From a virus, in IMG/VR virus record IMGVR_UViG_3300020193_000009, positions 1-64,000 of that record: 64,000 nt of DNA; one strand, written 5' to 3'. The notes below the pieces were generated by a model that did no database searches, was not told the origin of the DNA, and saw only the letters and a program-made list of their open reading frames with translations. The position numbers and the translations under genes were made by a program. Shown piece by piece: positions 1-60,400 of the stretch. The first letter of the stretch is position 1. Every line of letters begins with the position of its first letter.

Positions 1-30
1 CAAAGGGAGACAAGGTGAAAAAGAGATAAT

Positions 31-86
31 GGGGCGCACACGCTTACCCTCCGAGCGTGTGCGCCCCACCCTTTTTTTGTCTTTTT
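31..86 (+). terminator. Intrinsic terminator of the cassette upstream of the window
   Basis: ggggcgcacacgct/agcgtgtgcgcccc stem followed by a T-rich tract. Confidence 0.85.
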
Positions 87-89
87 GCA

Positions 90-185
90 GGGCGGGCGCT
101 AGGTGCGCATAGCAGCTTGCACGCCCTTTCTCACGATGTATGCCATTACAAGGTTTAGTATGGTTTCTTGGTGTAATGATACGCT
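90..185 (+). promoter_or_regulatory. Cassette element copy 1 (hairpin + GGTTT box + -10 TACGCT)
   Basis: Matches array consensus; -10 at 180-185. Confidence 0.85.
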
Positions 186-234
186 GGTAGTGTCGTTGAG
201 ATTACAACCGAGACACTCACGACAGGAGACAATA

Positions 235-588
235 ATGAATACGCAGGTCATCATCAGGGCTATCCTTACTGCGATGAGCAGTCTGGACAGCAAGCACCCG
301 AATGTCGGCGTGTGGTTGCCAGAAGCGACCATTGCTCGCTTGGGTGAGCGAGATGAGAAGGCAGACAGGCAGATGCTCCAGCAATGGTTCAATCGCATTG
401 TCGCTGTTGCTGGCAATGTGAATGTCGGCTGGGTTCACACCGTTATGTTCGACAATGACGGGATGTGGAATGTGTCGGAGTGCTATCTGGCGTTGGCTGG
501 TCACACACCGACTGTGTTCATCGGCAAGCGTTACGGCGTTGGAACGCAAGTCATTCCAGGGCAACCGATGAGCGAATGGTTGTGGTAG
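235..588 (+). CDS. Hypothetical protein, cassette 1 (117 aa; paralogue of cassette 5)
   Basis: AGGAG RBS before ATG 235; shares VWLP.AT, QQWFNRI..VAG.VNV.WVH and ECYL with 2452-2754. Confidence 0.85.
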   Translation: MNTQVIIRAILTAMSSLDSKHPNVGVWLPEATIARLGERDEKADRQMLQQWFNRIVAVAGNVNVGWVHTVMFDNDGMWNVSECYLALAGHTPTVFIGKRYGVGTQVIPGQPMSEWLW

Positions 589-596
589 GAAGTTTC

Positions 597-643
597 GGGC
601 GAGGGGCGCAAGCCCCTCGCCCACTTTCTTTTATCTTTTTTTT
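597..643 (+). terminator. Intrinsic terminator (GCAA loop)
   Basis: gggcgaggggc-gcaa-gcccctcgccc + T tract. Confidence 0.9.
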
Positions 644-646
644 GCC

Positions 647-741
647 GGGAGGGCGATCGGTGCGCATAGCACCTTGCACGCCCGCACACACGGTGTATGG
701 GTTTCTGGGTTTAGTAAGGTTTCTTGGCATACTGATACGCT
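647..741 (+). promoter_or_regulatory. Cassette element copy 2
   Basis: Consensus match; -10 TACGCT 736-741. Confidence 0.85.
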
Positions 742-790
742 GGTTGATGTCGGGGAAACACCAATAGACACCCCGACAAGGAGACAAGTA

Positions 791-1108
791 ATGAACACGG
801 AAACGAATGGGATAACGGTCGGCAATATGGCGACCATTCTCAGCGAGGTGATACTGGTAATGCTCGGCGGCATTCGCCTAGCGTTCCCAGTCGCAAGGCA
901 ATACGACATCGACAACCTCGGCTGGCTGGATAGTGGAATGCAGAATGCTGACGAGGCAATCAACTACTTCGTTCAGGTCGCAACCCACGAGTTCCGCAAC
1001 GAGGGCGAACCCAACAACTACGAGTTCGCACTTGATGCAATCAAGGAGGAAACGACCAAGTTGGTAAAGTGGTACAGCAACCTCAAACCCAACTACCAAT
1101 CACGATAG
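791..1108 (+). CDS. Hypothetical protein, cassette 2 (105 aa)
   Basis: AAGGAG RBS before ATG 791. Confidence 0.8.
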   Translation: MNTETNGITVGNMATILSEVILVMLGGIRLAFPVARQYDIDNLGWLDSGMQNADEAINYFVQVATHEFRNEGEPNNYEFALDAIKEETTKLVKWYSNLKPNYQSR

Positions 1109-1125
1109 CCCAGACAGACGGGCAA

Positions 1126-1177
1126 GAGACGAGCGCACCGACAAGCGGTGCGCTCGTTTCTTTTTTGTCTTTTTTTT
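1126..1177 (+). terminator. Intrinsic terminator
   Basis: acgagcgcaccg/cggtgcgctcgt stem + T tract. Confidence 0.9.
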
Positions 1178-1180
1178 CGT

Positions 1181-1276
1181 GGGAGGGCATTAGGTGCGCA
1201 TAGCACCTTGCACGCCCACTCACACGGTAGATGTCGTTTCCGGGTTTAGTACGGTTTCTTGGTGTAATGATAGTGT
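1181..1276 (+). promoter_or_regulatory. Cassette element copy 3
   Basis: Consensus match; -10 TAGTGT 1271-1276. Confidence 0.85.
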
Positions 1277-1398
1277 GGTAGGTGTAAGCGGGCAGTCGTG
1301 CGCCCGATACAATCGTCTGCTGGCAGACCAGCGACTCAAGCACGGCTAGTCTGCCACCCAACAACGGCAGTCGTTCGGATAATGACTGCCAGAGAGGA

Positions 1399-1695
1399 AT
1401 GGCAATGTCAGACTACTCAGCCAAGAGTCGGCACATCACTCAGCGTGGTTCACGAGAGCAGGAGTTCATCACCTTCCTGCTTGACCGAGCCTGCCCTGCG
1501 GAGGTGGAACTGGTCACGAACGAATGGCACGAGGACGGTACGGAAGTTGTTCGCAAGACCTTCCTTATCGACCTATGCTGCCAGCGTGTGGAGGTCACTG
1601 CCGAGCGCAACCCTGACAACACTTGGTCACTCATCAAGTGGAATGAATACGCCGTTCTCACCCGATACGAGGACGGGGTGGTAACAGCAGAATGA
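1399..1695 (+). CDS. Hypothetical protein, cassette 3 (98 aa; start may be 1405)
   Basis: GAGAGG RBS; ORF ends just before the terminator. Confidence 0.75.
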   Translation: MAMSDYSAKSRHITQRGSREQEFITFLLDRACPAEVELVTNEWHEDGTEVVRKTFLIDLCCQRVEVTAERNPDNTWSLIKWNEYAVLTRYEDGVVTAE

Positions 1696-1700
1696 GATGT

Positions 1701-1749
1701 GGGAGTCGAGGCGAAAGCCTCGGCTCCCCTCTTTTTTTGTCTTTTTTTT
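1701..1749 (+). terminator. Intrinsic terminator (GAAA loop)
   Basis: gggagtcgaggc-gaaa-gcctcggctccc + T tract. Confidence 0.9.
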
Positions 1750-1752
1750 CGT

Positions 1753-1848
1753 GGGCGGGCGCTAGGTGCGCATAGCAACTTGCACGCCCACTCACACGAT
1801 AGAACGCATTACAAGGTTTAGTACGGTTTCTTGGCATAAAGGTAGCGT
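1753..1848 (+). promoter_or_regulatory. Cassette element copy 4
   Basis: Consensus match; -10 TAGCGT 1843-1848. Confidence 0.85.
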
Positions 1849-1900
1849 GGTGGTGTCGGGAGCAACACCAATAGACACTCCCGATAAGGAGCAATACGCA

Positions 1901-2233
1901 ATGACCATATTCACACTACTCGTGGTGTTGGTTGCCACGACTGCGAGCGCACTCACAATGACGCTCGCATACACAATGACCAAGCGACTAGTTGCGTCGG
2001 AAACGAAACAACTACGCAGGCAACTCCACCAAGCCCAACTGAAACTCCGATACCGAACGGAGCGCCACCAGCGGGATTTGGAGAGCGCTCTAACTATCGC
2101 ACGACACGCAATAAGGGCAAGGGATTATTTCAAGACTTTCGCCCCGTCATCCGCAATGGGTACATTTGACCAAGATGGCAAATACATCCCCAGTGCGGTG
2201 GCTGCGATGAAACGGCGTGAGAACAACCTGTAA
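1901..2233 (+). CDS. Hypothetical membrane-anchored coiled-coil protein, cassette 4 (110 aa)
   Basis: TAAGGAG RBS; hydrophobic N-terminus MTIFTLLVVLVATTASALTM followed by a heptad-like segment. Confidence 0.8.
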   Translation: MTIFTLLVVLVATTASALTMTLAYTMTKRLVASETKQLRRQLHQAQLKLRYRTERHQRDLESALTIARHAIRARDYFKTFAPSSAMGTFDQDGKYIPSAVAAMKRRENNL

Positions 2234-2248
2234 TACCGAAGCCGAGAT

Positions 2249-2302
2249 GCCCCACGCGCTTACCCTCCGAGCGCGTGGGGCGTTTCTCTTTGTCTTTTTT
2301 TT
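2249..2302 (+). terminator. Intrinsic terminator (same taccctccg loop as 31-67)
   Basis: gccccacgcgct/agcgcgtggggc + T tract. Confidence 0.9.
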
Positions 2303-2305
2303 GCC

Positions 2306-2401
2306 GGGAGGGCATTAGGTGCGCATAGCACCTTGCACGCCCGCACACACGGTGTATGCCATTACAAGGTTTAGTACGGTTTCTTGATGTAATGATAGTG
2401 T
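2306..2401 (+). promoter_or_regulatory. Cassette element copy 5
   Basis: Consensus match; -10 TAGTGT 2396-2401. Confidence 0.85.
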
Positions 2402-2451
2402 GTTGGGTGTTGAGGAGATTACAACCTAGACACTCCCAACAGGAGAAAGTA

Positions 2452-2754
2452 ATGGAAACGTTCACCCAAGCGATTACGCAGGCAATGGCAAGCCTGTCTC
2501 CTAGCCACCCAGAAACTGCGGTGTGGTTGCCAATGGCAACCTACACCCAGCGGGGCGAAGGGCTGGATGCGCAGATGTGGTACGACCACTACCAGCAGTG
2601 GTTCAACCGCATTGCGTTCGTCGCAGGGCAGGTCAATGTTCACTGGGTTCACTCGGTGCGTATTGATGAGAACGGCATCTCGCAAGTCTGCGAGTGCTAT
2701 CTCAGCCCGACAGGCTCGGTAGAGCCGATAAGGGTTATCGGCGTTCGTGGTTAG
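2452..2754 (+). CDS. Hypothetical protein, cassette 5 (100 aa; paralogue of cassette 1)
   Basis: AGGAG RBS before ATG 2452; aligns to 235-588. Confidence 0.85.
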   Translation: METFTQAITQAMASLSPSHPETAVWLPMATYTQRGEGLDAQMWYDHYQQWFNRIAFVAGQVNVHWVHSVRIDENGISQVCECYLSPTGSVEPIRVIGVRG

Positions 2755-2806
2755 AACGCCATAACTGCGCCAAGGTTATTAGGCACGGAGTGCCACTTGA
2801 CGCAGG

Positions 2807-2856
2807 AGTTGGGGCGGGTGCGAAAGCACCCGCCCCAACTTTCTTTATCTTTTTTT
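2807..2856 (+). terminator. Intrinsic terminator (GAAA loop)
   Basis: agttggggcgggtgc-gaaa-gcacccgccccaact + T tract. Confidence 0.9.
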
Positions 2857-2859
2857 CGT

Positions 2860-2955
2860 GGGCGGGCGATCAGTGCGCATAGCACCTTGCACGCCCACTC
2901 ACACGGTAGATACGATTACAAGGTTTAGTACGGTTTCTTGATGTAAAGGTAGTGT
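2860..2955 (+). promoter_or_regulatory. Cassette element copy 6
   Basis: Consensus match; -10 TAGTGT 2950-2955. Confidence 0.85.
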
Positions 2956-3006
2956 GGTGGGTATCACCAACGCCTGAACAAGAAGTAGGGCAAGGGGGTA
3001 TCTGTA

Positions 3007-3297
3007 ATGGTAAAATTCAAACGGCGTTATGTAAGTCCGAAAGTTAGGGCTCGCTTCTATCTGAATGCTCGGGAGCGCACCAAAATGCTTGAGGACAATC
3101 GGGGAAACGCATTTATGTGTCGGTTGATATTCCTAGCGTCTATCAATCGGGGTGCTCTGGAGAACTTCCTTCAGAAAGTGCGTGATGAAACTCCTTTCAC
3201 CCCCGAAGTTATTAGACCAAGCGAGCGTGCTCTGACCAAGGGGCGTTCGCCCAAGCGTCAAGGTACAAGCAAGAAGTTTCCGAGACTTGGAGACTAA
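3007..3297 (+). CDS. Basic hypothetical protein, cassette 6 (96 aa)
   Basis: AAGGGGGT RBS; fills the cassette; K/R-rich. Confidence 0.8.
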   Translation: MVKFKRRYVSPKVRARFYLNARERTKMLEDNRGNAFMCRLIFLASINRGALENFLQKVRDETPFTPEVIRPSERALTKGRSPKRQGTSKKFPRLGD

Positions 3298-3303
3298 GAA
3301 AGT

Positions 3304-3340
3304 GGGCGAGACGCGCAAGCGTCTCGCCCCTTTTTCTTGT
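3304..3340 (+). terminator. Intrinsic terminator (GCAA loop)
   Basis: gggcgagacgc-gcaa-gcgtctcgccc + T tract. Confidence 0.9.
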
Positions 3341-3348
3341 CCCGGGGC

Positions 3349-3444
3349 GGGTGGGCGATCGGTGCGCATAGCACCTTGCACGCCCGTTCACACGATAGAC
3401 ACGATTACAAGGTTTAGTACGGTTTCTTGATGTAATGATAGTGT
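3349..3444 (+). promoter_or_regulatory. Cassette element copy 7
   Basis: Consensus match; -10 TAGTGT 3439-3444. Confidence 0.85.
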
Positions 3445-3495
3445 GGGTCTTACCAACAGCAGTCGTTCAGATAACGACTACGGAAATGAGATGAA

Positions 3496-3834
3496 ATGAC
3501 CACAGACAAAATACTCCATACAGTTGAACTTCCACTCAACCCAGACAACCACTATGGAACGGCAAGCACAGCGCTTGACTTGTTTCATCGGGTGAGTATT
3601 GCCCACATAATGGGTGAAGCGTCTGGCGAACTGATTCAGGTATGGCTAGGTACACCGACTAATGCCAAACTGTTCACGCTCGTAGGTACTGCCAAGAAAG
3701 ACGGAAAGATAGTCTTTGTTGGTGAGTGTGCTGACCCCGATTTCCCAAAGGAGGTTGACGGTATTCGCGTCAATAATCTCTTTGCGTTTGAGGCAACACC
3801 GAACACTCGGATAAATGTAAAGACACAGCAATAA
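3496..3834 (+). CDS. Hypothetical protein, cassette 7 (112 aa)
   Basis: Fills the cassette between element and terminator. Confidence 0.8.
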   Translation: MTTDKILHTVELPLNPDNHYGTASTALDLFHRVSIAHIMGEASGELIQVWLGTPTNAKLFTLVGTAKKDGKIVFVGECADPDFPKEVDGIRVNNLFAFEATPNTRINVKTQQ

Positions 3835-3840
3835 GAAAGT

Positions 3841-3887
3841 GGGCGAGAGGCGCAAGCCTCTCGCCCCTTTTCTTTGTCTTTTTTTTT
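3841..3887 (+). terminator. Intrinsic terminator (GCAA loop; stem identical to 4383-4408)
   Basis: gggcgagaggc-gcaa-gcctctcgccc + T tract. Confidence 0.9.
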
Positions 3888-3890
3888 GCA

Positions 3891-3986
3891 GGGTGGGCGA
3901 TCGGTGCGCATAGCAGCTTGCACACCCTTTCACACGATACACGGTGTTTCTAGGTTTAGTACGGTTTCTTGGCATAAAGATAGTGT
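3891..3986 (+). promoter_or_regulatory. Cassette element copy 8
   Basis: Consensus match; -10 TAGTGT 3981-3986. Confidence 0.85.
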
Positions 3987-4037
3987 GCTTACCAACAACA
4001 GCAACCGTTCGGATAACGGTAGCAGAAACGAGATGAA

Positions 4038-4376
4038 ATGAAACACAACAACAACAACAACTTGTATTGGACATTCGGTAGGCTGGGGGAAATCGTTGCG
4101 ACGAATACCGCAGTCACGCTCAACACAGAACATTTCACCCAGCAGGAATGGGGGTGGATAAACGAAGCAACGGATGGTTGGCGGCAGGATGTCGCTATCG
4201 CCTGTTTCGTTCGTTCGTGGTATCGCTTCAATCGACAGATGAGCGAGAACGGACTTCCATGCAAGTGGTGCTCGTTCGTTGAGGATGAGACAACTGAACA
4301 CGGATGGGTGTGGCTGACCTGCAACGACCCAGCACAGTCAATCACGTCAGAGGGTTGCGATTGGGGAAACTGCTAA
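4038..4376 (+). CDS. Trp/Cys-rich acidic hypothetical protein, cassette 8 (112 aa)
   Basis: Fills the cassette; same leader type as cassette 7. Confidence 0.8.
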   Translation: MKHNNNNNLYWTFGRLGEIVATNTAVTLNTEHFTQQEWGWINEATDGWRQDVAIACFVRSWYRFNRQMSENGLPCKWCSFVEDETTEHGWVWLTCNDPAQSITSEGCDWGNC

Positions 4377-4382
4377 GAAATC

Positions 4383-4422
4383 GGGCGAGAGGCGCAAGCC
4401 TCTCGCCCACTTTCTTTGTCTT
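4383..4422 (+). terminator. Intrinsic terminator (GCAA loop)
   Basis: gggcgagaggc-gcaa-gcctctcgccc + T tract. Confidence 0.9.
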
Positions 4423-4427
4423 GCGGC

Positions 4428-4523
4428 GGGTGGGCATTAGGTGCGCATAGCAACTTGCACGCCCGCACACACGATAGACACGATTACAAGGTTTAGTACG
4501 GTTTCTTGGCATAAAGATAGTCT
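4428..4523 (+). promoter_or_regulatory. Cassette element copy 9
   Basis: Consensus match; -10 TAGTCT 4518-4523. Confidence 0.85.
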
Positions 4524-4576
4524 GGTGGGTATCTACAAGCAGTCGTTCGGATAACGACAGCAGAAAAGAGAATGAG

Positions 4577-4885
4577 ATGAAAGAGTACGAAGCAGCAAAG
4601 TCATTTGACCCGATGTTCATCATCACCGTTCAGGGGCTGGTGCGTTCAGCACTTGTCTCGCTCAAGCGTTCACGCAAGGCAGGTGGAGTGCCTATCGTGA
4701 CGTGGCGAGAGACCGTTGGTAATCCCAACATTGAGTTGATGAAAGCAATGCTCACCTACGCAACTCGTGTTGTGGCTGAGGAACTCAACCGTGATGTTGA
4801 GACCTACTTCATCCAAGAAGTCGTGGACAACGCACGACGCTTGGAAATCACGGCAATGGTTCAGCGAACGGAGTGGGACGGATGA
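4577..4885 (+). CDS. Hypothetical protein, cassette 9 (102 aa)
   Basis: Fills the cassette between element and terminator. Confidence 0.8.
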   Translation: MKEYEAAKSFDPMFIITVQGLVRSALVSLKRSRKAGGVPIVTWRETVGNPNIELMKAMLTYATRVVAEELNRDVETYFIQEVVDNARRLEITAMVQRTEWDG

Positions 4886-4892
4886 AAGATTC

Positions 4893-4939
4893 GGGGTGGG
4901 GGCGCAAGCCTCCACCCCACTTCTTTTTTTATCTTTTTT
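4893..4939 (+). terminator. Intrinsic terminator (GCAA loop)
   Basis: ggggtgggggc-gcaa-gcctccacccc + T tract. Confidence 0.9.
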
Positions 4940-4942
4940 GCC

Positions 4943-5038
4943 GGGTGGGCGGTAGGTGCGCATAGCACCTTGCACGCCCGTTCACACGATGAAGCCATAA
5001 TGAAGGTTTAGTACGGTTTCTAGGCATAGTGTTAGCGT
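4943..5038 (+). promoter_or_regulatory. Cassette element copy 10
   Basis: Consensus match; -10 TAGCGT 5033-5038. Confidence 0.85.
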
Positions 5039-5090
5039 GGGGAGTGCCGATGAGATAACAAACCTAGACACTCACGGCAAGGAAAGAACA

Positions 5091-5396
5091 ATGGCAAAGG
5101 TAAACCTGAAGGACATACAAGCAAGGCTCGTGAAGCGTGGGCGTGAAGCCTACGAGAACGAGAGCCTGAGCGCAGAACTGCTTGCGCTCACGCACGACAC
5201 GACTGACGCTTTCATCTTTGATGAAGCGACTTTCGCTGGCGAAGCGAAGGCAGACAACCCCGACTATGTGAACCACAAGAACTTGTGGCGCAACCGTGTC
5301 GGTTCCATTGCTGAGCGCAACGGAATCCCAAAGGATTCGCTGAGCGTTCAATGGACTGTTGATGGCGAGATGGTAGTCTCGTACAAACAGTCGTAG
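5091..5396 (+). CDS. KVNLKDIQ-KRGR family protein A, cassette 10 (101 aa; possibly DNA-binding)
   Basis: AAGGA RBS before ATG 5091; clear paralogue of 5683-5985 and 6268-6549. Confidence 0.85.
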   Translation: MAKVNLKDIQARLVKRGREAYENESLSAELLALTHDTTDAFIFDEATFAGEAKADNPDYVNHKNLWRNRVGSIAERNGIPKDSLSVQWTVDGEMVVSYKQS

Positions 5397-5411
5397 GCAT
5401 ACGCAAGGAAG

Positions 5412-5443
5412 GCGCCCGACCCGAAAGGGTCGGGCGTTTCTTT
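5412..5443 (+). terminator. Intrinsic terminator (GAAA loop)
   Basis: cgcccgaccc-gaaa-gggtcgggcg + tttcttt. Confidence 0.85.
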
Positions 5444-5444
5444 G

Positions 5445-5484
5445 GCTGGGGTTCAAGGTGCTACTCGCACCATTGAACCCCAGC
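5445..5484 (-). repeat. Inverted copy of the cassette hairpin
   Basis: Reverse complement core GTTCAA-T-GGTGC-GAGTA-GCACC-TTGAAC inside a gctggg/cccagc outer stem. Confidence 0.85.
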
Positions 5485-5535
5485 TGGCTCCGGGGTGCTC
5501 TCTAGATCTCTTTAATACATATTCTCAGCTTGTGC

Positions 5536-5631
5536 GGGCGGGCGCTGATGCGTATAGCATCTAGAACGCCCGCCCCATAGGAATAGGTGTTTCACAAGGT
5601 TTAGCACGGTTTCTAGGCATAGTGATAGCGT
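5536..5631 (+). promoter_or_regulatory. Cassette element copy 11 (covariant stem GATGC/GCATC)
   Basis: Diverged consensus; -10 TAGCGT 5626-5631. Confidence 0.8.
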
Positions 5632-5682
5632 GGAGGGTGCGGGGAGCAATACCAACCAAACAACCCGCAAGGAGAAACAACT

Positions 5683-5985
5683 ATGAAAGTAAACCTGAAA
5701 GAAATCCAATCCCGCCTCGTCAAGCGAGGGCGTGAGGCATACGAGAACGCAAATCTCGTAGCCGAACTCCAAGCGCTGGACGCTGGCGACCCAACGGATG
5801 CTTTCCTCTTCGAGGAAGCGACCTACGAGGGTGAGTGCTCGTCAACGAACGAGGACTACACGAACCACAAGAACCTGTGGCGCAACCGTGTGTCGTCGCT
5901 CGCTGGTCGCTACCTCGGGGACGAGGTGGAAATCTCCGTCCAGTGGACGGATAAGGGCGAAATGATAGTCTCGTTCCGCCAGTAA
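5683..5985 (+). CDS. KVNLKDIQ-KRGR family protein B, cassette 11 (100 aa)
   Basis: AAGGAG RBS; paralogy. Confidence 0.9.
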   Translation: MKVNLKEIQSRLVKRGREAYENANLVAELQALDAGDPTDAFLFEEATYEGECSSTNEDYTNHKNLWRNRVSSLAGRYLGDEVEISVQWTDKGEMIVSFRQ

Positions 5986-5999
5986 TACCGCAATAAGGA

Positions 6000-6031
6000 G
6001 CGCCCCGCCGAGCAATCGGCGGGGCGTTTCT
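6000..6031 (+). terminator. Intrinsic terminator (GCAA loop)
   Basis: cgccccgccga-gcaa-tcggcggggcg + tttct. Confidence 0.8.
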
Positions 6032-6034
6032 CGG

Positions 6035-6072
6035 CGGTCGTTCAAGGTGCTATTCGCACCATTGAACGACCG
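6035..6072 (-). repeat. Inverted copy of the cassette hairpin
   Basis: cggtc-GTTCAAGGTGCTATTCGCACCATTGAAC-gaccg. Confidence 0.85.
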
Positions 6073-6122
6073 GCTGTGAGAATGCCTATCTCACTTACTT
6101 TTAATATGCATTTCTATTTATG

Positions 6123-6220
6123 GCGGGGGTTCGATGGAGCGTATAGCTCCTTGAACACCCGCTCTCTAGGCAAGCGCATAAATAGGCGTTTAGTATGTTC
6201 TCAATACACAAAGATACGCT
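6123..6220 (+). promoter_or_regulatory. Cassette element copy 12 (covariant stem GGAGC/GCTCC)
   Basis: GTTCGA-T-GGAGC-GTATA-GCTCC-TTGAAC; GTTTAGTA box; -10 TACGCT 6215-6220. Confidence 0.75.
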
Positions 6221-6267
6221 GGATGTTGTGAACGGGATACCAAACACAAAGAAAGGCAGGTAGCACT

Positions 6268-6549
6268 ATGAAAGTGAACCTGAAAGACATCCAATCCCGA
6301 CTAGTCAAGCGTGGGCGTGACGCATTCCAGGACCCAATCCTGGAAGCCGACCTACTCGCACTTGACCCTGCGAACGAAGATGATGCGTTCATCTACGAAG
6401 CAGGACAAGGCAATCCCGACGACGATAACTTCGTTGCGCACAAGAATAAGGTGCGCAATCGGGTTATCTCAATGGCGAAGACACACTCGCTAGAAGTCAG
6501 CATCCAATGGACTGACTTAGGCGAGTGCGTTGTTAGCCTAGCCAAATAA
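6268..6549 (+). CDS. KVNLKDIQ-KRGR family protein C, cassette 12 (93 aa)
   Basis: Paralogy with the two preceding genes. Confidence 0.9.
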   Translation: MKVNLKDIQSRLVKRGRDAFQDPILEADLLALDPANEDDAFIYEAGQGNPDDDNFVAHKNKVRNRVISMAKTHSLEVSIQWTDLGECVVSLAK

Positions 6550-6574
6550 CCAATGGTATTCCCGTTCACACGGA

Positions 6575-6606
6575 GTGCGTGCGCCGAAAGGCGCACGCAT
6601 TTTCGT
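6575..6606 (+). terminator. Intrinsic terminator (GAAA loop)
   Basis: tgcgtgcgcc-gaaa-ggcgcacgca + ttttcgttt. Confidence 0.85.
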
Positions 6607-6644
6607 TTGGTGTTCAAGGTGCTATTCGCACCATTGAACACCAA
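6607..6644 (-). repeat. Inverted copy of the cassette hairpin marking the array end
   Basis: ttggt-GTTCAAGGTGCTATTCGCACCATTGAAC-accaa; composition turns AT-rich immediately after it. Confidence 0.85.
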
Positions 6645-7187
6645 TTTTTATGTATTTCTATTTCCTTAACTTGATTACATATTCTCAAACTAAACCTTTT
6701 CATGGGTGTTCCAAATAAAAATGTATTTTTATTTGCACACCCATTTATTTTTATTTATTTATGCCTTTACTTTAATCTATATTCCTAACTAAAACTATTT
6801 ATTTGTTTATGTGTTTCAAATTCTATTTAGTTTTGCCTATGCCGGCGCAGACAAAATTTTTTAGGGGCTACCCTTGTGTGCCAATGGCTGGGTAGTATCC
6901 TGTATCTATCCGTATACAGACAACTCGATCAATCCCGCAATTATTTGATGGGTAATAACACCGTTGTAATCAATCCGGCTTTAACTGTATATTAAAAATC
7001 GTTGATTAGTCGTTTGAACTATGCTAAAAATACTCGAGAGTTCTCTCGATTAAAGTGTCGATAGTTTCGGCTATAAAAAAATGTGGATTTGTATCGATTA
7101 ATTTCTATTTTACTTTAAATATGTCCAGAATAGGCTATAGAAGCCCTAATAAGCGTTCTCAAATTATAAGTGTTTCACAATTGCACA

Positions 7188-7265
7188 TTTTTTCTATCTT
7201 TTACCCCATTTTGCCCCACTTTTACCCACTTTTTACCACTTTTTACTATGTTTTGCCTATTTTTA
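7188..7265. repeat. Helically phased T-tract repeats (TTTTACCCAC-like, ~10-11 bp period)
   Basis: ttttaccccatt ttgccccact tttacccact ttttaccact ttttactatg ttttgcctat. Confidence 0.7.
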
Positions 7266-7337
7266 TTTATTTTTATATGCCATTTTAGGCAAATTTTTTT
7301 GGGAATATGCCTATATTAAAGCATATTCCTTTGCCTA

Positions 7338-7353
7338 TGTTCCACGTGGAACA
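7338..7353. promoter_or_regulatory. parS: parS-type centromere palindrome
   Basis: Perfect 16-bp palindrome TGTTCCACGTGGAACA matching the bacterial chromosomal parS consensus. Confidence 0.8.
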
Positions 7354-7411
7354 ATGAACTATAATCTATTTTAATATTTATAACGAAGTTTGAACTCTCG
7401 TCTCTTACTAT

Positions 7412-19553: not shown

Positions 19554-20519
19554 TTAACCTTTTTGAGTCCATACTTGTTGAGCAAGTAAATTCATTGGGA
19601 AATCGGTAAGGCGATTAGTCTTCAATTTCACATTGTATCTACTAACAATAAGATATGGCAATGAAGTGAAAGTAACTACTTGACCACTACTAATCATTGC
19701 TTGTGCTTGAGCAATCACTAATGAAGGGTTGCCAATCTTTGCCAATACTTCTGACAATCGTTGTTGATCAACTTTCTTACCGTATCTGTTAAATATACAG
19801 GCAACAGCAGAAATCATTTGATCACGAAACATTTCATTGTTATTTGGATACGCAGCTTTTAGCGTCTGTAGTGTCTTTAGCAATACGGTTGCGCCGGCAT
19901 TGTCATACACTTTACGCAATGTTGCAACACAACGAACATTATCTGGACCAGGGGCAAAATGAATTTTTGCTCCGACTTTCTCGACAATTTCATTGATAGC
20001 AATTGCTGATTTGTCTCCAGCAACAATACCAGCTTTAAAGATTTGCGCCGGCGTTGGCTTTGTATGTTCTTTATTAGTCAGAGCAAAGATGTGTGCTTCA
20101 TCTTCAATTGATAGACCAAAGTAAACAAGTGCGTTTACATTTGCGTCTTTCATTCCCATAGCAATAAGCGAGTGATACCTATGGCTACCGTCAATGATTG
20201 CCAATGTGTTATCATCACGCATTGAGACTGTGATTACACCAAGCAAATCTGGGTTAAAATTCTTTGTGATACGGTTGATTTTTGCCTTCAACGGCTGTCG
20301 TTGATAGGTATAATCAACAAACATATCAGAAATTTTGATCAAAGACGACATCTTTGAGATGTGTCCAACATCAAAGTTTGCACCAAGAGATTCGTGTTTA
20401 GTAGCAATTGCTACTTTCAAATCTTTGTTTACTTGTTTTGTGGTTAATTGCTTGGATGTAGTTTTGTTTTTCACTACTGTCTCCTTGTTGTTTAATTTGG
20501 ATAATTGCTTATTTTTCAT
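19554..20519 (-). CDS. ParB/Srx-like N-terminal domain protein
   Basis: VDYTYQR..GVITVS.R....IIDGSHR. Confidence 0.75.
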   Translation of the reverse strand: MKNKQLSKLNNKETVVKNKTTSKQLTTKQVNKDLKVAIATKHESLGANFDVGHISKMSSLIKISDMFVDYTYQRQPLKAKINRITKNFNPDLLGVITVSMRDDNTLAIIDGSHRYHSLIAMGMKDANVNALVYFGLSIEDEAHIFALTNKEHTKPTPAQIFKAGIVAGDKSAIAINEIVEKVGAKIHFAPGPDNVRCVATLRKVYDNAGATVLLKTLQTLKAAYPNNNEMFRDQMISAVACIFNRYGKKVDQQRLSEVLAKIGNPSLVIAQAQAMISSGQVVTFTSLPYLIVSRYNVKLKTNRLTDFPMNLLAQQVWTQKG

Positions 20520-57031: not shown

Positions 57032-57427
57032 TTATCTCTCCGTTAAAGTTAAAGAAACATCGTAATAAGAGCACTGGGAGGTATAATCTCGTCTTATTAG
57101 ATCTTCGCTATATGAATCTATATAGCAATCTAATGTTTGATACTGACCTGGCGATAATTCAATAATAATTGTCGCAGCAGCTGAGCCATTAGCTAACGAA
57201 TAAAGAAAATCTCTGCCTACCCGATTGTCCACAGTTTTTGATTGTAAACTTGGTAAATATGACCATTTTAAAGAAAATTGTTTTTTATTCCTTGAATAAT
57301 ATCTACGTTTATGACCCGATGCTAAATCAATATCATCAGCAGCAATCTGTTCACTAATAGATATTTTTCTGTTATGTTCTGTTATTTCTGTTGAGTTAAT
57401 TGATAAAAGTTTATGTATTGACATCAC
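57032..57427 (-). CDS. Putative distal tail (Dit-like) protein
   Basis: Directly follows the tape measure gene; 131 aa. Confidence 0.65.
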   Translation of the reverse strand: MMSIHKLLSINSTEITEHNRKISISEQIAADDIDLASGHKRRYYSRNKKQFSLKWSYLPSLQSKTVDNRVGRDFLYSLANGSAAATIIIELSPGQYQTLDCYIDSYSEDLIRRDYTSQCSYYDVSLTLTER

Positions 57428-60400
57428 ACGCCTCTATTTAAACCTGTATATGTTTTAATTACCCTATTTTCTAAACCAGCTGTTTTTTGATTTCTTGGCA
57501 AAACTTTTGTATTATATTCTTTCATCATTGAATTAAACCACTCTGGTTCACCAACAAATGTATCAACATAGATATTTACATTCTGCGTTGATGAACTCGT
57601 TCCACCAGCAGACTGCATTGCTGGCGCTGGAACCCTCATTGATGGAATTTGCGGGACAGAGAACTTTGCTTTATTAAGCTGAGTCAGGGCAGGTATGCCA
57701 ATCTTCCTTACAGCCTCTGCATTTAGAACAAATTCACCACCATGCAGAGTTGCAGGAATTGGCATAGATGGAGCGCCGGGTACATAACCACCTTCTTTTC
57801 TGTTCACGCTTGGCAATGGGATTGGTCCCAATTGATTCTTTGTACGATAAAATCTATCATAGTAATCCTTCGCTCTCCTTATCAAAATTCTTTCAATCCT
57901 TGTATTTATCGCAAGATTTTCTACAGGGACAGTGCCTATTTGCATAAAAGGATCTCTTCCAACTATTCTTGCAAAGGCATTGAAACTTGCCTTACCTTCA
58001 CCAAAGTAGTATAGTAAATTCTCAAAACCGTATAGGTCATCCGTCATGCCGTATGGTTGTCCTTTAGTAATATTTTTCAGACTAGAATATGAGCCAAGAA
58101 GGAAGTCATCAAAATGCCTTGCCATTCTTATATAATATTCCTGAAACTGCGCAAATTCACCAATGATTTTCCAAAGAGTTTGTGTTTGCACAACACTACT
58201 CAACCCGTGACCACCAATATCTGGATCAAATTTTTGCCTTTCTAAGATCGTTCGCCAACTATTCTCTAAAGCCTCGTCAAAGCTCTGACCAGGAATAAAA
58301 TCACGCATATCAAGACCTTGCAATCTTGCAAAAATCTCATTTAGTGCATACCGCTGTTCATTAGTATAGTTCTGAATTGGCAGATTCTTGTAATCAAGAA
58401 TTTCATACTTACCAGCAGGGAACCTGAGCCCCTCACCAGGTCTTGGAGTAAAATATGTGTCTACACCCATTATATTTTCAATTGCCCCGGGGTTAGCATC
58501 AATTAGATCTTTTAATTTAATGGCTATTAACCGACCTGTTTCCCGGGAAGCACTTCCTCTATTCATTATTGGTCGCACAAGGTGATTTAATGCAAAATGA
58601 ATTGTGTCTCTAATAATTTCATTATTATCACTATTCATAACCCTATAATGGTCACTTGTTGGACGTAAAATAGCATCACCAATTTCATTTATTTCAAATG
58701 GATATGATGTTTCATGAACAGCCATCAACTTATCAAGAGTCAACTCTCTCATCCCACGATCCAATTGAATACTCTTCATTATTTGTTCTTCGATAACTAC
58801 AGGCTTGTTTCTCGCAGCGACTTCTATGGCTGTTAGCCTCTTTCCTTCTAGCACTAAACGGGCATATTCAAGCTGAGCCTGAAGATTGTTTTTTACCTTG
58901 GCGGCATAAAGGAGCGCTGATACATATGTATCATTAACATCACCGCCAAAAGATTTATACCCAACGTGTGCTTCGAGCCATCCTCTTACCGTACTAACTG
59001 CATTTGGACCAATTTTTGATGTCCCAGTAATATCAAGGGGGTTTAAAGGAATATTTCGAACCTTTCTTAAATCCGGAAGAGCTTTTAATAAATCATCACT
59101 TAATCCAAATCCAACTGTTTCGCCTAAAATATTATGAATATACGCGCCTACTGATTCAGTAACTTCCGGGGACCCTTCGAGATGAGAAAATTCAAGTAAA
59201 CTTTCAGGCAAAATAGAGCGACCAGTCACTTTTTTAGTTTGTATGTTAAATTGTTTTTGAACTAAAGCAGGTAGATTTTTACCAGTAGTTCTTGTACCAG
59301 ATGGCAAAGCAAGTTGTCGAGGTATAAGATTTTTAACATCTGTTAATTTTGAAGATTCTTTTTGAAGGCTGGATACTATACCTTTTGCATCATTATTTAT
59401 TTTAATAGACCTATTTACTCTAAGCAAAGCTCTCTTTAACAAATCTTTTGTGAAAAACCCACCTCTTCTTCTAACTTGTTTTAGTATATTTACAAGTTCC
59501 ATATCGTCAATGTCAAGAGGAATTTCAGCCAATATTTTCTGGGTCCGTGTGCGCATACTAGTTGAGCCAGGGATATTGATATCTTCGAGGAGCCTGCCTC
59601 CTTTTGTTATATAGAAAGAACCTTTTGGACGGAGGATTGGAAGACTGGTTTCATCAATAGGAGAAAGATCGTAACCCAGTTTTCTAGCAATTTTTGCAGC
59701 ACGACCTTCTCCTTGAAATACATCGCCAGCAAACCCCCTGTCGTCTGCGTAGTACCTGGCAGAATTTACTATTTCTTCGACTTTACCTCTAACCCATGAA
59801 TAAGTATAATCTCCAAGATTATCTCCAGGACCAAACGATCTACCAGATAAAGATTCCGAAATAATATTATCTTTAATACCTTCTGGACCCACATGGATCC
59901 CAATTCTTCTTGAAGGTAACAGATTTAATGGATTTAGAGACCTTATTGCTTCGATTGCCTTAGTGATAGGTCCTGGTTGCAAGATTGCATCACGTGTTCT
60001 ATATGGCATTGATTCTTGTCTCAGGGCGGGTGGCATTGATTCATTAGCTATAAATGCTGCTTTATTTGCAGCTAATCTTGCATTTCTAATTGCAATATTA
60101 TCTGCTCTAATAAGATTATTAATTACGCCTTTAACACCAGCCTCTAAAGCATTGCCTTGTGGTGGATTTACAGAACCCTTAAGAGTGTTAACAACTTCTG
60201 GAATATAATTTTTTGCAACCTCAATTTTATCAACAACTGAACCTACCTTTTCTGCAATCACTCCAGCACGGATTTTTGCTGATTGACCAACAGTTAATCT
60301 TCCAGCTTTGGCAGCAGAGACCGCCTTTGCAGCTCTTGCAACATCATCAAACCTGCTAACCGCTGTCACTGGAGTACCGGATGCCGCTGTGCCGAGTATG

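Follow-up and report, generated by a model that had tools for sequence, protein, structure and literature searches.

What does a hairpin of about 40 nt do that recurs, in both orientations, between the small genes of an uncultured freshwater siphovirus? The stretch of DNA that we analysed (the window) comprises positions 1 to 64,000 of an 80.7-kb viral record, IMGVR_UViG_3300020193_000009, from a genome that is about 77% complete. The first-pass annotation had taken the hairpin for a new type of site, recognised by its structure and serving recombination, nicking or protein loading. The reading to which we lean, with a probability of about 0.4, is that of a strand-specific folded site read by a putative protein, which would mark or control the borders of early transcription units.

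The cassette array and its hairpins

The hairpins lie in an array with a GC content of 53%, compared to 32% for the phage. The array holds at least 15 one-gene cassettes, and the window begins within it. Each cassette runs from terminator to hairpin, promoter, leader and small ORF; terminator-like sites number 25, against 7.1 expected. The array occupies one and the same locus in three lineages and terminates in non-coding DNA, with convergent genes to its right. A chimeric assembly as the source of the jump in GC content was ruled out, L009, L019 and L046 each linking the island to AT-rich phage DNA. The phage, a siphovirus, encodes a polymerase of the DnaE type, a tape measure of 6438 aa and its own primase, helicase and SSB. 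Window positions 1 to 7000 had no blastn match in 50,697 phage records, and the protein search of the left flank returned L009 itself as its sole match. Pfam and PHROGs gave no family for the cassette proteins; 10 of the 12 were scanned, all of them ORFans, the other two being paralogues (cassette 5 of cassette 1, cassette 11 of cassettes 10 and 12). The MKVNLK... family beside the flipped copies was modelled by AF2 with a pLDDT of 84, and a Foldseek search against the PDB returned nothing at E ≤0.001. The protein of cassette 6 has an arginine-rich N-terminus. No candidate hairpin-binding protein was found.

The hairpin consists of a stem of about 17 bp with a single bulge and a G-N-N-T-A loop under two closing G-C pairs. 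The forward core is GGTGC-GCATA-GCACC in 10 copies, and it changes compensatorily to GATGC-GTATA-GCATC (5546–5560) in copy 11 and to GGAGC-GTATA-GCTCC (6135–6149) in copy 12. Behind cassettes 10, 11 and 12 the core is inverted, and each of these flipped copies (5445–5484, 6035–6072 and 6607–6644) has one bulged base and outer stems that are unrelated in sequence and perfectly paired. In all of this the sequences and places given by the first-pass annotation proved correct. Its description of a 5-bp core with outer stems holds for the core and extends to about 17 pairs in every copy, while its statement that all copies follow a terminator fails for the first forward copy (L009 12998–13048) and for forward copies 11 and 12, which AT-rich DNA precedes.

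The flipped copies fold with energies of −25 to −33 kcal/mol (z −7.3 to −9.3). In the mid-array copies the stem is interrupted by a small internal loop and a mismatched G.A; these copies fold weakly (z −1.8 as RNA, −3.2 as DNA), and a mid-array copy attains the correct fold on the plus strand only. An intrinsic terminator is a GC-rich hairpin with a U tract directly behind it, a description that the element does not fit: the last flipped copy is followed on the plus strand by a run of T, and the other 14 copies have no directly adjoining T run. Some outer arms contain Chi-like words (GCTGGTG), an idea that was dropped because the arms are variable and palindromic. The AT-rich hairpin X, to the right of the array, is retained through compensatory changes in its L046 homologue.

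Table 1. Hairpins, boxes and promoter blocks at the array (window positions unless another sequence is named).
Feature	Position	Strand	R1 model score (bits)	Remarks
First forward copy of array	L009 12998-13048			
Forward hairpin, cassette 1	84..135	+	63.6	fold; stem ~90-126, loop GCATA
Promoter block, cassette 1	153..188	+		GTTTAGTA.GGTTTCTTGG then TAnnnT; repeat family D4
Forward hairpin, cassette 2	641..692	+	67.1	
Forward hairpin, cassette 3	1175..1226	+	62.9	
Forward hairpin, cassette 4	1747..1798	+	63.9	
Forward hairpin, cassette 5	2300..2351	+	63.6	
Forward hairpin, cassette 6	2854..2905	+	63.9	
Forward hairpin, cassette 7	3343..3394	+	64.9	
Forward hairpin, cassette 8	3885..3936	+	65.9	
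Forward hairpin, cassette 9	4422..4473	+	60.7	
Forward hairpin, cassette 10	4937..4988	+	65.1	
Flipped hairpin behind cassette 10	5438..5488	-	54.3 (minus) vs 31.7 (plus)	stem 5445-5484; minus-strand loop GAGTA; fold -32.9 kcal/mol
AT-rich box	5511..5528	+		TTTAATACATATTCTCAG; 45 nt right of flipped loop; no TAnnnT after; conserved in lineages A, B, C
Forward hairpin, cassette 11	5530..5580	+	57.7	GATGC-GTATA-GCATC; outer stem 9 bp
Flipped hairpin behind cassette 11	6027..6077	-	55.3 vs 20.8 (other strand)	stem 6035-6072; fold
AT-rich box	6100..6117	+		45 nt right of flipped loop
Forward hairpin, cassette 12	6119..6169	+	64	GTTCGA-T-GGAGC-GTATA-GCTCC-TTGAAC; fold
Flipped hairpin behind cassette 12	6599..6649	-	56 vs 29.2	stem 6607-6644; final element of GC-rich array; fold
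AT-rich box	6671..6688	+		TTGATTACATATTCTCAA; 44 nt right of last flipped loop
AT-rich hairpin X	6704..6742	+		arms resemble hairpin family; T run next, then another box at 6771; fold z -4.9
AT-rich iteron region	6750-7400			
Promoter block starts, other cassettes	709, 1244, 1816, 2369, 2923, 3412, 3954, 4491, 5006, 5599, 6188			

Pairing, strand and loop under selection

The comparative set held 61 distinct variants from lineages A and B, together with 12 copies from a third lineage. Alignment A4, made by model search and contaminated by near-perfect palindromes that match the wrong strand too, was excluded from the counts. Among the 61 distinct copies, 88.7% of the stem cells are paired, compared to 75.8% after shuffling; none of 500 shuffles reached the observed value, and slid alignments gave at most 47.5%. 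Compensatory double changes affect 8 of the 17 pairs (118 cells). The initial observation holds, and in stronger form. L046, an independent lineage that was left out when the structure was defined, behaves in the same manner: 85.3% of its cells are paired (against 72.1%) and 9 of 16 pairs are doubly changed. The constraint reaches the loop as well. Positions 1, 4 and 5 (G, T and A) are fixed in 61 of 61 distinct copies, while positions 2 and 3 vary freely, for a total of 11 loop sequences; one type-C copy has a 6-nt loop, G-N-N-N-T-A. The bulged T is nearly invariant. The inner stem occurs in at least six different sequences, and the outer stems are unrelated among copies.

The wobble pairs are strikingly one-sided, with 63 G.T cells (61 of them in forward copies) against 2 A.C, an excess to which a strand-biased mutation process could contribute and in which many cells are inherited rather than independent. 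Intermediates of the C-G, U-G, U-A kind are present, and C.A is absent from them. Because G.T so far exceeds A.C, one strand matters. This comparative evidence identifies the hairpin as a folded element that is under selection and specific to one strand, with the reservation that template switching within palindromes can yield compensatory changes without selection (PMC8794818). The compensatory pairs, the invariant G..TA loop, the fixed bulge and the wobble asymmetry together point to a folded site that is probably read by a protein, and to this extent, with strand and orientation both mattering to the reader, the structure-recognised site of the first-pass annotation stands.

A dimeric regulator, either a repressor shutting off the early genes or an activator at about −83, might instead bind the palindrome as duplex DNA, the arms being matched by template switching. 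Template switching is able to make the two arms of an inverted repeat alike (PMC8794818, PMC13100816). The 5-N5-5 palindrome also stands at the distance of a class-I activator from the promoter, and the orientation-specific 9-bp core GCGNNTAGC would be readable in the duplex. We consider such an operator improbable. Compensation across 17 pairs, with at least six inner stems and unrelated outer stems, would be intolerable for a dimer that reads sequence; the asymmetry of wobble pairs and the conserved bulge would be meaningless in a duplex, and the flipped copies have no promoter to regulate.

The element is restricted to the arrays. A 21-nt motif search of the whole record gave 10 forward and 3 reverse matches, all within the array, with none for the control pattern. 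In about 100 kb of phage DNA beyond the arrays the covariance model found no further copy, a search of 185,579 genomes gave one chance-level match only, and exact motif scans of viral contigs found nothing besides the phage's own relatives. All Rfam matches, the CRISPR-DR families included, fell far below threshold and lay mostly on terminators or coding sequence; the sole match overlapping a hairpin (forward copy 7) was naRNA4 at 3300–3385 on the minus strand, with 24.5 bits against a gathering threshold of 59.5 (E 0.45). The hairpin module matches no known RNA family or DNA site. These searches bear on the notion of a selfish or neutral palindrome of the REP type, or of an RNA decoy resembling a CRISPR repeat, that would merely travel with the repeated scaffold. 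In size, in shape and in its occurrence in both orientations in extragenic DNA the hairpin does recall REP/BIME elements. Type I-F CRISPR repeats resemble its GTTCA... arm and 5-bp stem with a GUAUA loop. REP elements, however, are dispersed in the genome, whereas these copies are confined to arrays; no RAYT was found, and no CRISPR-DR family matched. The strict placement of one copy per promoter, together with a loop, bulge and pairing that purifying selection has kept across three lineages, makes a passive passenger of either kind hardly credible.

Coupling to the promoter box and the putative reader

Every hairpin stands 43–50 nt to the left of an 18-nt box (TTKARTAC...). The loop-to-box distance is 46–50 nt in 62 distinct forward spacers and 43–45 nt for the flipped copies, and it is kept even between unrelated spacers. 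A forward hairpin is followed by the box and, 20 nt on, by TAnnnT, which is invariant in 34 sequences from three lineages and occurs after forward boxes only. Judging from this conservation, the forward box with TAnnnT is the predicted promoter of the cassette, and it places the centre of the hairpin near −83. A flipped hairpin is followed by an AT-rich box that lacks a −10 element, and this arrangement closes each of the last three cassettes. The polarity is pronounced, the flipped copies scoring 54–56 bits in their own orientation and 21–32 bits in the opposite one. The same layout is seen in 10 metagenome loci and in three lineages: each promoter has its forward copy, and each of the three final cassettes is followed by a flipped one. 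No use of the box motif was seen in other parts of the genome.

In the reading that we prefer, the hairpin would be recognised in its folded, single-stranded form by a phage or host protein. It would set or control the borders of early transcription units in two capacities, controlling the early promoters from upstream and serving as a polar insulator: the forward copies would confront whatever enters from the left, and the flipped copies would be turned toward the convergent genes to the right of the array. Neither a pure insulator nor a pure promoter element accounts for everything, the former leaving the fixed distance to the box unexplained and the latter the flipped hairpins at boxes that have no −10. 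What the sequences show is the structure with its selection, polarity, coupling to the box and confinement to the arrays, and a crossover outside it; the protein reader and the boundary or insulator role are our inference, as is our leaning toward DNA over RNA. With a DNA hairpin extruded from one strand, no antisense transcript would be needed for the flipped copies. Recognition as RNA, on transcripts that read through or run antisense, comes close behind. A more specific version would apply the principle of phage N4 (see below), a DNA hairpin as a transcription signal, without a virion polymerase: a host or phage protein would read the one-strand DNA hairpin and switch early promoters of the host polymerase, and the flipped copies at their promoter-less boxes would be polar stops between the GC-rich early island and the convergent late genes. 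In that full form it is unlikely.

An RNA element would act as a protein operator on read-through transcripts (forward copies) or antisense transcripts (flipped copies), which it would stop, process or modify in the manner of boxB/nut or RNase sites. Strand-specific wobble pairs are the classic signature of RNA. Lambda boxB and the MS2 and PP7 sites are RNA operators comparable in shape, with a 5-bp stem, a G...A pentaloop and a single bulge at a fixed depth. A sigma-70-like, AT-rich candidate promoter, conserved in three lineages, lies upstream of the first forward copy, and the arginine-rich N-terminus of the cassette 6 protein would also suit an RNA operator. Yet strong intrinsic terminators precede the forward copies and the promoter block comes after them, so that a minority of transcripts only would include them. 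The flipped copies would require antisense transcripts, and no promoter that could give rise to these was found. The fixed spacing to a DNA box would go unexplained, and antitermination would be pointless because the array ends in non-coding DNA. The likeness to known operators is also partial. Compared to the GNRNA loop of boxB, G1 and A5 are fixed here as well, but position 3 accepts any base rather than a purine and T4 is invariant. Unlike the boxB, MS2 and PP7 stems, the stem runs on for 12 more pairs. In lambda nut the hairpin is downstream of the promoter, whereas here it is upstream, and a candidate promoter precedes the first copy alone; no boxA was seen, only a loose TTTGTCT word occurring upstream. 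We regard an RNA element as possible, though doubtful.

For a DNA hairpin that acts in transcription, the precedent is phage N4, in whose early promoters a hairpin is read single-stranded by the virion RNA polymerase and orientation matters (PMC4496689, PMC13037366). The likeness lies in a strand-specific 5-bp stem under a loop of the GC-G..A-GC type in a phage early region. The differences are in the geometry: the loop is of 5 nt (6 in one type-C copy), compared to 3 nt on a 5–7 bp stem in N4; about 70 nt separate the hairpin from the sigma-70-type TAnnnT downstream of it, whereas the N4 hairpin is centred at −11; and if they were read as in N4, the forward copies would face away from their own genes. 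Sequence searches of PHROGs, Pfam and the PDB disclosed no phage or virion RNA polymerase, the 6438-aa protein included. The latter was considered as a hidden RNA polymerase and ruled out, as it gave tail matches only (Pfam, PHROGs) and no match in the PDB sequence search. The top of the hairpin also recalls the DNA mini-hairpin GCG-N(1–2)-AGC, in which two G-C pairs and a sheared G.A enclose one or two loop bases (PMC13037366). The version here, GC-G-NNT-A-GC, has the same frame plus one base, and its stability is beyond what nearest-neighbour folding can model.

Cassette rearrangement and related systems

The first-pass annotation had inferred a site for recombination or nicking, at which cassettes would be moved, inverted or excised in the manner of attC or IS200/IS605. 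AttC sites and IS608 ends are recognised as folded sites with extrahelical bases. As with attC, IS200/IS605 and REP, we are dealing with folded imperfect palindromes that have extrahelical bases, are probably recognised by strand and lie at cassette borders; cassettes 11 and 12, and the entire array, are bracketed by inverted copies, and cassette order varies among lake populations, contigs from other samples skipping or reverting by whole cassettes. The joints themselves argue otherwise. The orientation is identical in every array, and the lake-metagenome contigs show no strand-change joint, in conflict with the expected inversion or excision at the hairpins. The only mapped deletion, that of cassette 8 in L040, has its crossover within the shared promoter block and not in the hairpin; the remaining rearrangement joints are spread across the whole scaffold.

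The enzymes are likewise missing from what was searched. PHROG scans of about 50 phage proteins found no integrase, invertase, HUH or Y1 enzyme, and the approximately 95 kb formed by the window, the rest of the record and L009 yielded no tyrosine or serine recombinase and no HUH enzyme; neither IntI nor TnpA was found in this genome of about 77% completeness. The RYYYAAC/GTTRRRY cores of attC are absent, the arms GTTCAA...TTGAAC having the opposite order and not conforming in purines and pyrimidines. AttC cassettes are promoterless, whereas each cassette here has its own promoter and terminator, and the crossovers here lie away from the hairpin. At IS200/IS605 ends both hairpins are on one strand, whereas the bracketing copies here are inverted. 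The array stays at the same locus in three lineages, and tandem duplication of one gene family accounts for the three flipped copies. A recombination or nicking site is therefore very unlikely, and this part of the first-pass interpretation finds no support.

As replication signals, the hairpins would be single-stranded initiation or priming sites, or fork barriers, used when their own strand is unwound, next to a putative origin in the AT-rich iteron region (Table 1). The GC-G..A-GC top recalls the very stable mini-hairpins at the G4 and ssiA priming sites, and in RSF1010 the hairpins ssiA and ssiB lie next to iterons in inverted orientation (PMC13037366). The phage encodes the primase, helicase and SSB mentioned above, and the flipped copies are oriented toward forks that would come from the iterons. 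Fifteen forward copies, each tied to a promoter, would make little sense as priming sites, however, and the loop exceeds that of the mini-hairpin motif by one nucleotide. Such a function is highly improbable.

The strand-specific folded site at early transcription-unit borders, our preferred reading, has its nearest setting in the promoter-early stem-loops (PeSLs) of T4-type phages, in which a repeated terminator stem-loop and a strong early promoter flank small ORFan genes (Arbiol 2010, PMC2839356; Comeau 2014, PMC4122927). Terminator stem-loop and early promoter are repeated between small ORFan genes here too. Homologous exchange between PeSL repeats deletes, adds and reorders genes, as the changes of order and the promoter-block crossover show for this array too. 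Unlike PeSLs, the array is a compact GC-rich island in an unrelated siphovirus, and it has a second, covarying and oriented hairpin at a fixed distance from the box, flipped at the array end, which is unreported in PeSLs. The scaffold is an analogue of PeSLs and not a member of the family, the phage not being T4-type and having no DNA match in the 50,697 phage records.

Arrays of tiny early genes are where phages store functions of host takeover and anti-defence, and their wiring and insulation are known for few model phages only. The comparative support in the present case is unusually clear: the pairing is specific to one strand, both the loop code and the distance to the box are fixed, and there is a flipped form. 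The compact sequence code could become an orthogonal insulator part. If the hairpin is read as RNA, it would represent a new class of operator or insulator. If it is read as folded DNA, it would be the second case, after N4, of DNA hairpins as transcription signals, here for the host polymerase.

Fold, loop code and strand of the hairpin

The sequences quoted in the first-pass annotation were all found where it had placed them. The 21-nt core of the hairpin, a folded element of about 40 nt present in each early-gene cassette, is confined to the array, with 10 forward and three reversed occurrences; a control pattern gave none in the 80,668-bp IMG/VR virus record that is the source of the window. 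On folding, the three reversed (flipped) copies reach -25 to -33 kcal/mol, with z between -7.3 and -9.3. We gathered 128 copies from the window and 17 loci. The 61 distinct ones (50 forward, 11 flipped), all from the first two lineages, A and B, were aligned with MAFFT. The full element comprises 12 outer pairs, a bulged T, five inner pairs and a 5-nt loop, with an extra 3'-side bulge in one sub-lineage. Mid-array copies have the long stem too, interrupted by a G.A mismatch and one small internal loop.

Among these 61 copies, 88.7% of the stem cells are paired, compared to 75.8% after shuffling (reached by none of 500 shuffles), and the value falls to 31-47.5% when the partner is slid. The covariation proposed from the window alone was borne out: both sides have changed at eight of the 17 pairs (118 cells). 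The inner stem takes at least six forms (GGTGC/GCACC, GATGC/GCATC, GGAGC/GCTCC, CCTGC/GCAGG, GCTGC/GCA-GC and CGAGC/GCT-TG), and in the outer arms TTGCAC with GTGCAA replaces TTGAAC with GTTCAA. A covariance model built solely on the A and B copies found nine forward and three flipped copies in L046, a locus of a third, more distant lineage (type C), and had no match in other phage DNA amounting to about 100 kb. Aligned separately, the 12 L046 copies are 85.3% paired (72.1% shuffled), with double changes at nine of 16 pairs. RNAalifold, applied to 120-nt stretches, predicted this hairpin as the sole structure.

The loop reads G-N-N-T-A in all 61 copies, with positions 2 and 3 free (11 loop sequences), and in the 12 type-C copies, save one whose loop has 6 nt (G-N-N-N-T-A). 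Both G-C pairs that close the loop hardly ever change, and the few exceptions are compensated (for example, TGT-GCATA-ACA in the related locus L019). Flipped copies carry the loop code on the minus strand, where the covariance model scores 54-56 bits, versus 21-32 on the opposite strand; the opposite strand of a mid-array copy did not form the element on folding. These features call for a reader able to tell strand and polarity apart and in contact with loop (G1, T4 and A5), bulge and helix, probably a protein on the folded single strand.

The strand preference extends to the wobble pairs of the 61 copies, where G.T accounts for 63 cells at eight pair positions and A.C for two. Series of C-G, U-G and U-A are seen, the C.A intermediate never. 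The main rival explanation, an RNA element on read-through or antisense transcripts, has to be weighed here and is possible, if doubtful. As 61 of the 63 wobble cells come from forward copies and many are inherited, mutational bias may also contribute to them. We lean towards the hairpin acting as DNA: no antisense RNA would then be required for the flipped copies, and the GC-G..A-GC top is reminiscent of the very stable DNA mini-hairpins found at priming sites and in N4 promoters (PMC13037366), a likeness that serves as a lead only.

No Rfam family matched the hairpin. A strict pattern with a free inner stem was absent from IMG/VR outside this phage group and matched once in 185,579 genomes, which equals chance expectation. 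The single match (L045, a Verrucomicrobiia MAG, 4957-4984) lies just past a gene end, and its inner stem pairs poorly. The likeness to attC or IS200/IS605 ends suggested by the first-pass annotation fell away, as the hairpin lacks the defining features of both; REP elements, N4 promoters and intrinsic terminators were rejected on the same grounds. The comparison with lambda boxB points both ways: G1 and A5 of the loop are fixed, as in a GNRNA pentaloop, but any base occurs at position 3 and T4 is fixed as well. Selfish or decoy repeats are a most improbable account of copies that are confined to the array and stand one to a promoter.

The cassette unit and its spacing

Each unit runs from a GC-rich intrinsic terminator with a T run through the hairpin, a spacer of about 30 nt, the promoter block, a leader and a strong Shine-Dalgarno sequence to an ORF of 93-117 aa. 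The promoter block, which carries an 18-nt box, reads GGTTTAGTACGGTTTCTTGG (GTTGAGTACACATTCTCAATGCC in L046). The hexamer TAnnnT lies 20 nt after TTTAGT; its T, A and final T never vary among 34 sequences of three lineages, and we take it to be the signature of a sigma-70-type -10. The block has no -35 at normal spacing: the box lies 3 nt too far upstream, and therefore an extra factor is possibly needed. Two GGTTT words stand 10 bp apart in the block (window 153-188 and 11 others), and the motif is not used outside the array in the phage genome. Together, this pattern suggests that the cassette promoters would need an activator or a modified sigma. Of the 12 cassette proteins, 10 were scanned, and all of these are ORFans; cassettes 5 and 11 encode paralogues of 1 and of 10/12. 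Two cassette proteins are very basic, one with an Arg/Lys-rich N-terminus and the other with a KRKRK-rich tail; both may bind nucleic acid and are candidate readers of the hairpin.

From loop base 1 to the box, 62 distinct forward spacers measure 46-50 nt: 47 in the lineage of the window, mostly 48 in the second and 48-50 in L046. The separation of hairpin and -10 likewise proved constant when measured. For flipped copies, the loop lies 43-45 nt from an AT-rich box in three lineages, despite unrelated spacers. A duplex operator is an unlikely explanation for elements whose arms change in compensation and whose wobble pairs favour one strand.

In all arrays extending to the right end (10 loci and L046), each of the last three cassettes has a flipped copy behind it. 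About 45 nt beyond this copy lies the strongly conserved AT-rich box CTCTTTAATACAYATTYTC, and then the forward hairpin of the next cassette. The AT-rich boxes are similar to the promoter block over its 5' half, but none is followed by TAnnnT. The last three cassettes always code for paralogues of one protein family (MKVNLKDIQSRLVKRGR...), and thus an old tandem duplication has probably multiplied the flipped copies, which have been retained ever since. At the head of each array, the forward hairpin of the first cassette is near-perfect and lies behind AT-rich DNA; the island is therefore bounded by inverted, near-perfect copies. At its right edge, an AT-rich hairpin, a T run and a further box have the look of a cassette head in AT-rich form, a 'ghost' of one.

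The island in the phage genome

Bases 1-6650 of the window have a GC content of 51-53%; the rest has 30-42%, mostly 30-38%, with coding on the minus strand. The last 196 bases of contig L009 are identical to window 1-196. L009 adds three cassettes and the array start, its remaining 12.7 kb being AT-rich phage DNA (portal, ribonucleotide reductase). The GC-rich island sits at the same place in L019 and in L046, a flank protein of which is only 50% identical, and an assembly chimera is thereby ruled out as the source of the GC jump. Across the three lineages the island has 51-57% GC (window 1-6650; L009 13000-14715; L046 13190-17700), versus 30-38% for the phage genome. Scanning metagenomes with the promoter word gave 22 loci, of which 18 are arrays. 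Immediately to the left of the array, a segment of some 75 nt, starting GGCAACTCGTTTGCTTGGGACC, is nearly identical in three lineages and ends in a hairpin whose stem is kept while its loop varies; it is a candidate small RNA.

Coordinates of features in and around the array
Feature	Position	Strand	Remarks
Very basic cassette protein	window 3007-3297		
Very basic cassette protein	L046 15929-16264	minus	
AT-rich box after last flipped copy	6671		
AT-rich hairpin	6704-6742		arms like GC-rich family; T run after; kept in L046 via compensatory changes
Further box	window 6771-6788		48 nt beyond AT-rich hairpin
AT-rich non-coding region, 800-bp	window 6749-7330		repeated TTTGCCTAT / ATGCCTAT words and other short repeats
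ParB-like gene	19554-20519		named alongside partition-site reading of 6749-7330
Tape-measure ORF, 6438 aa	G000 (whole record) 57424-76740 (window 57424-64000 and beyond)	minus	only tape-measure/minor-tail matches, at its ends
Candidate small RNA	L009 12814-12890; L019 11266-		
Candidate small RNA	L046 about 17860-17790	minus	

The runs containing the sequence are lake-water metagenomes. PHROG scans identified a siphovirus, with terminase and tail genes; its tail would be about a micrometre long if the tape-measure ORF sets tail length. Its replication genes encode a DnaE-type polymerase, primase, DnaB-type helicase and SSB, and further genes a UvsX-like recombinase, RuvC-like resolvase, Cas4-like and SbcD-like nucleases and a ParB-like protein. 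Among the scanned proteins, none was recognised as an RNA polymerase, integrase, invertase or HUH enzyme. The AT-rich non-coding region, kept in L046, separates the convergent array from the main genome and may be an origin or partition site. That the hairpins, recurring with every cassette, are themselves replication signals we find hard to credit.

Cassette exchange and the proposed role of the hairpin

The array is reshuffled in nature. Cassette order and content vary from one lake sample to another, some whole cassettes being left out and others repeated (window 1-5100 versus metagenome contigs), and no cassette joint in these contigs shows a strand change. The first-pass annotation had offered the hairpin as a recombination site, which is now very unlikely. 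In L040, which has no cassette 8, the repeated regulatory scaffold follows the 7/8 version through terminator, hairpin, spacer and promoter block and the 8/9 version from just after the -10; the crossover is not at the hairpin, and breakpoints in other contigs are scattered over the T run, spacer, promoter block and leader. The exchange is homologous, of the PeSL type (PMC2839356, PMC4122927), and not site-specific at the hairpin.

Our preferred reading concerns transcription. Forward copies would lie near -83 of each predicted early promoter, and flipped copies would be positioned where convergent minus-strand genes enter the island. Because of this placement, we favour, with a probability of roughly 0.4, a role for the hairpin in bordering or controlling the early transcription units.
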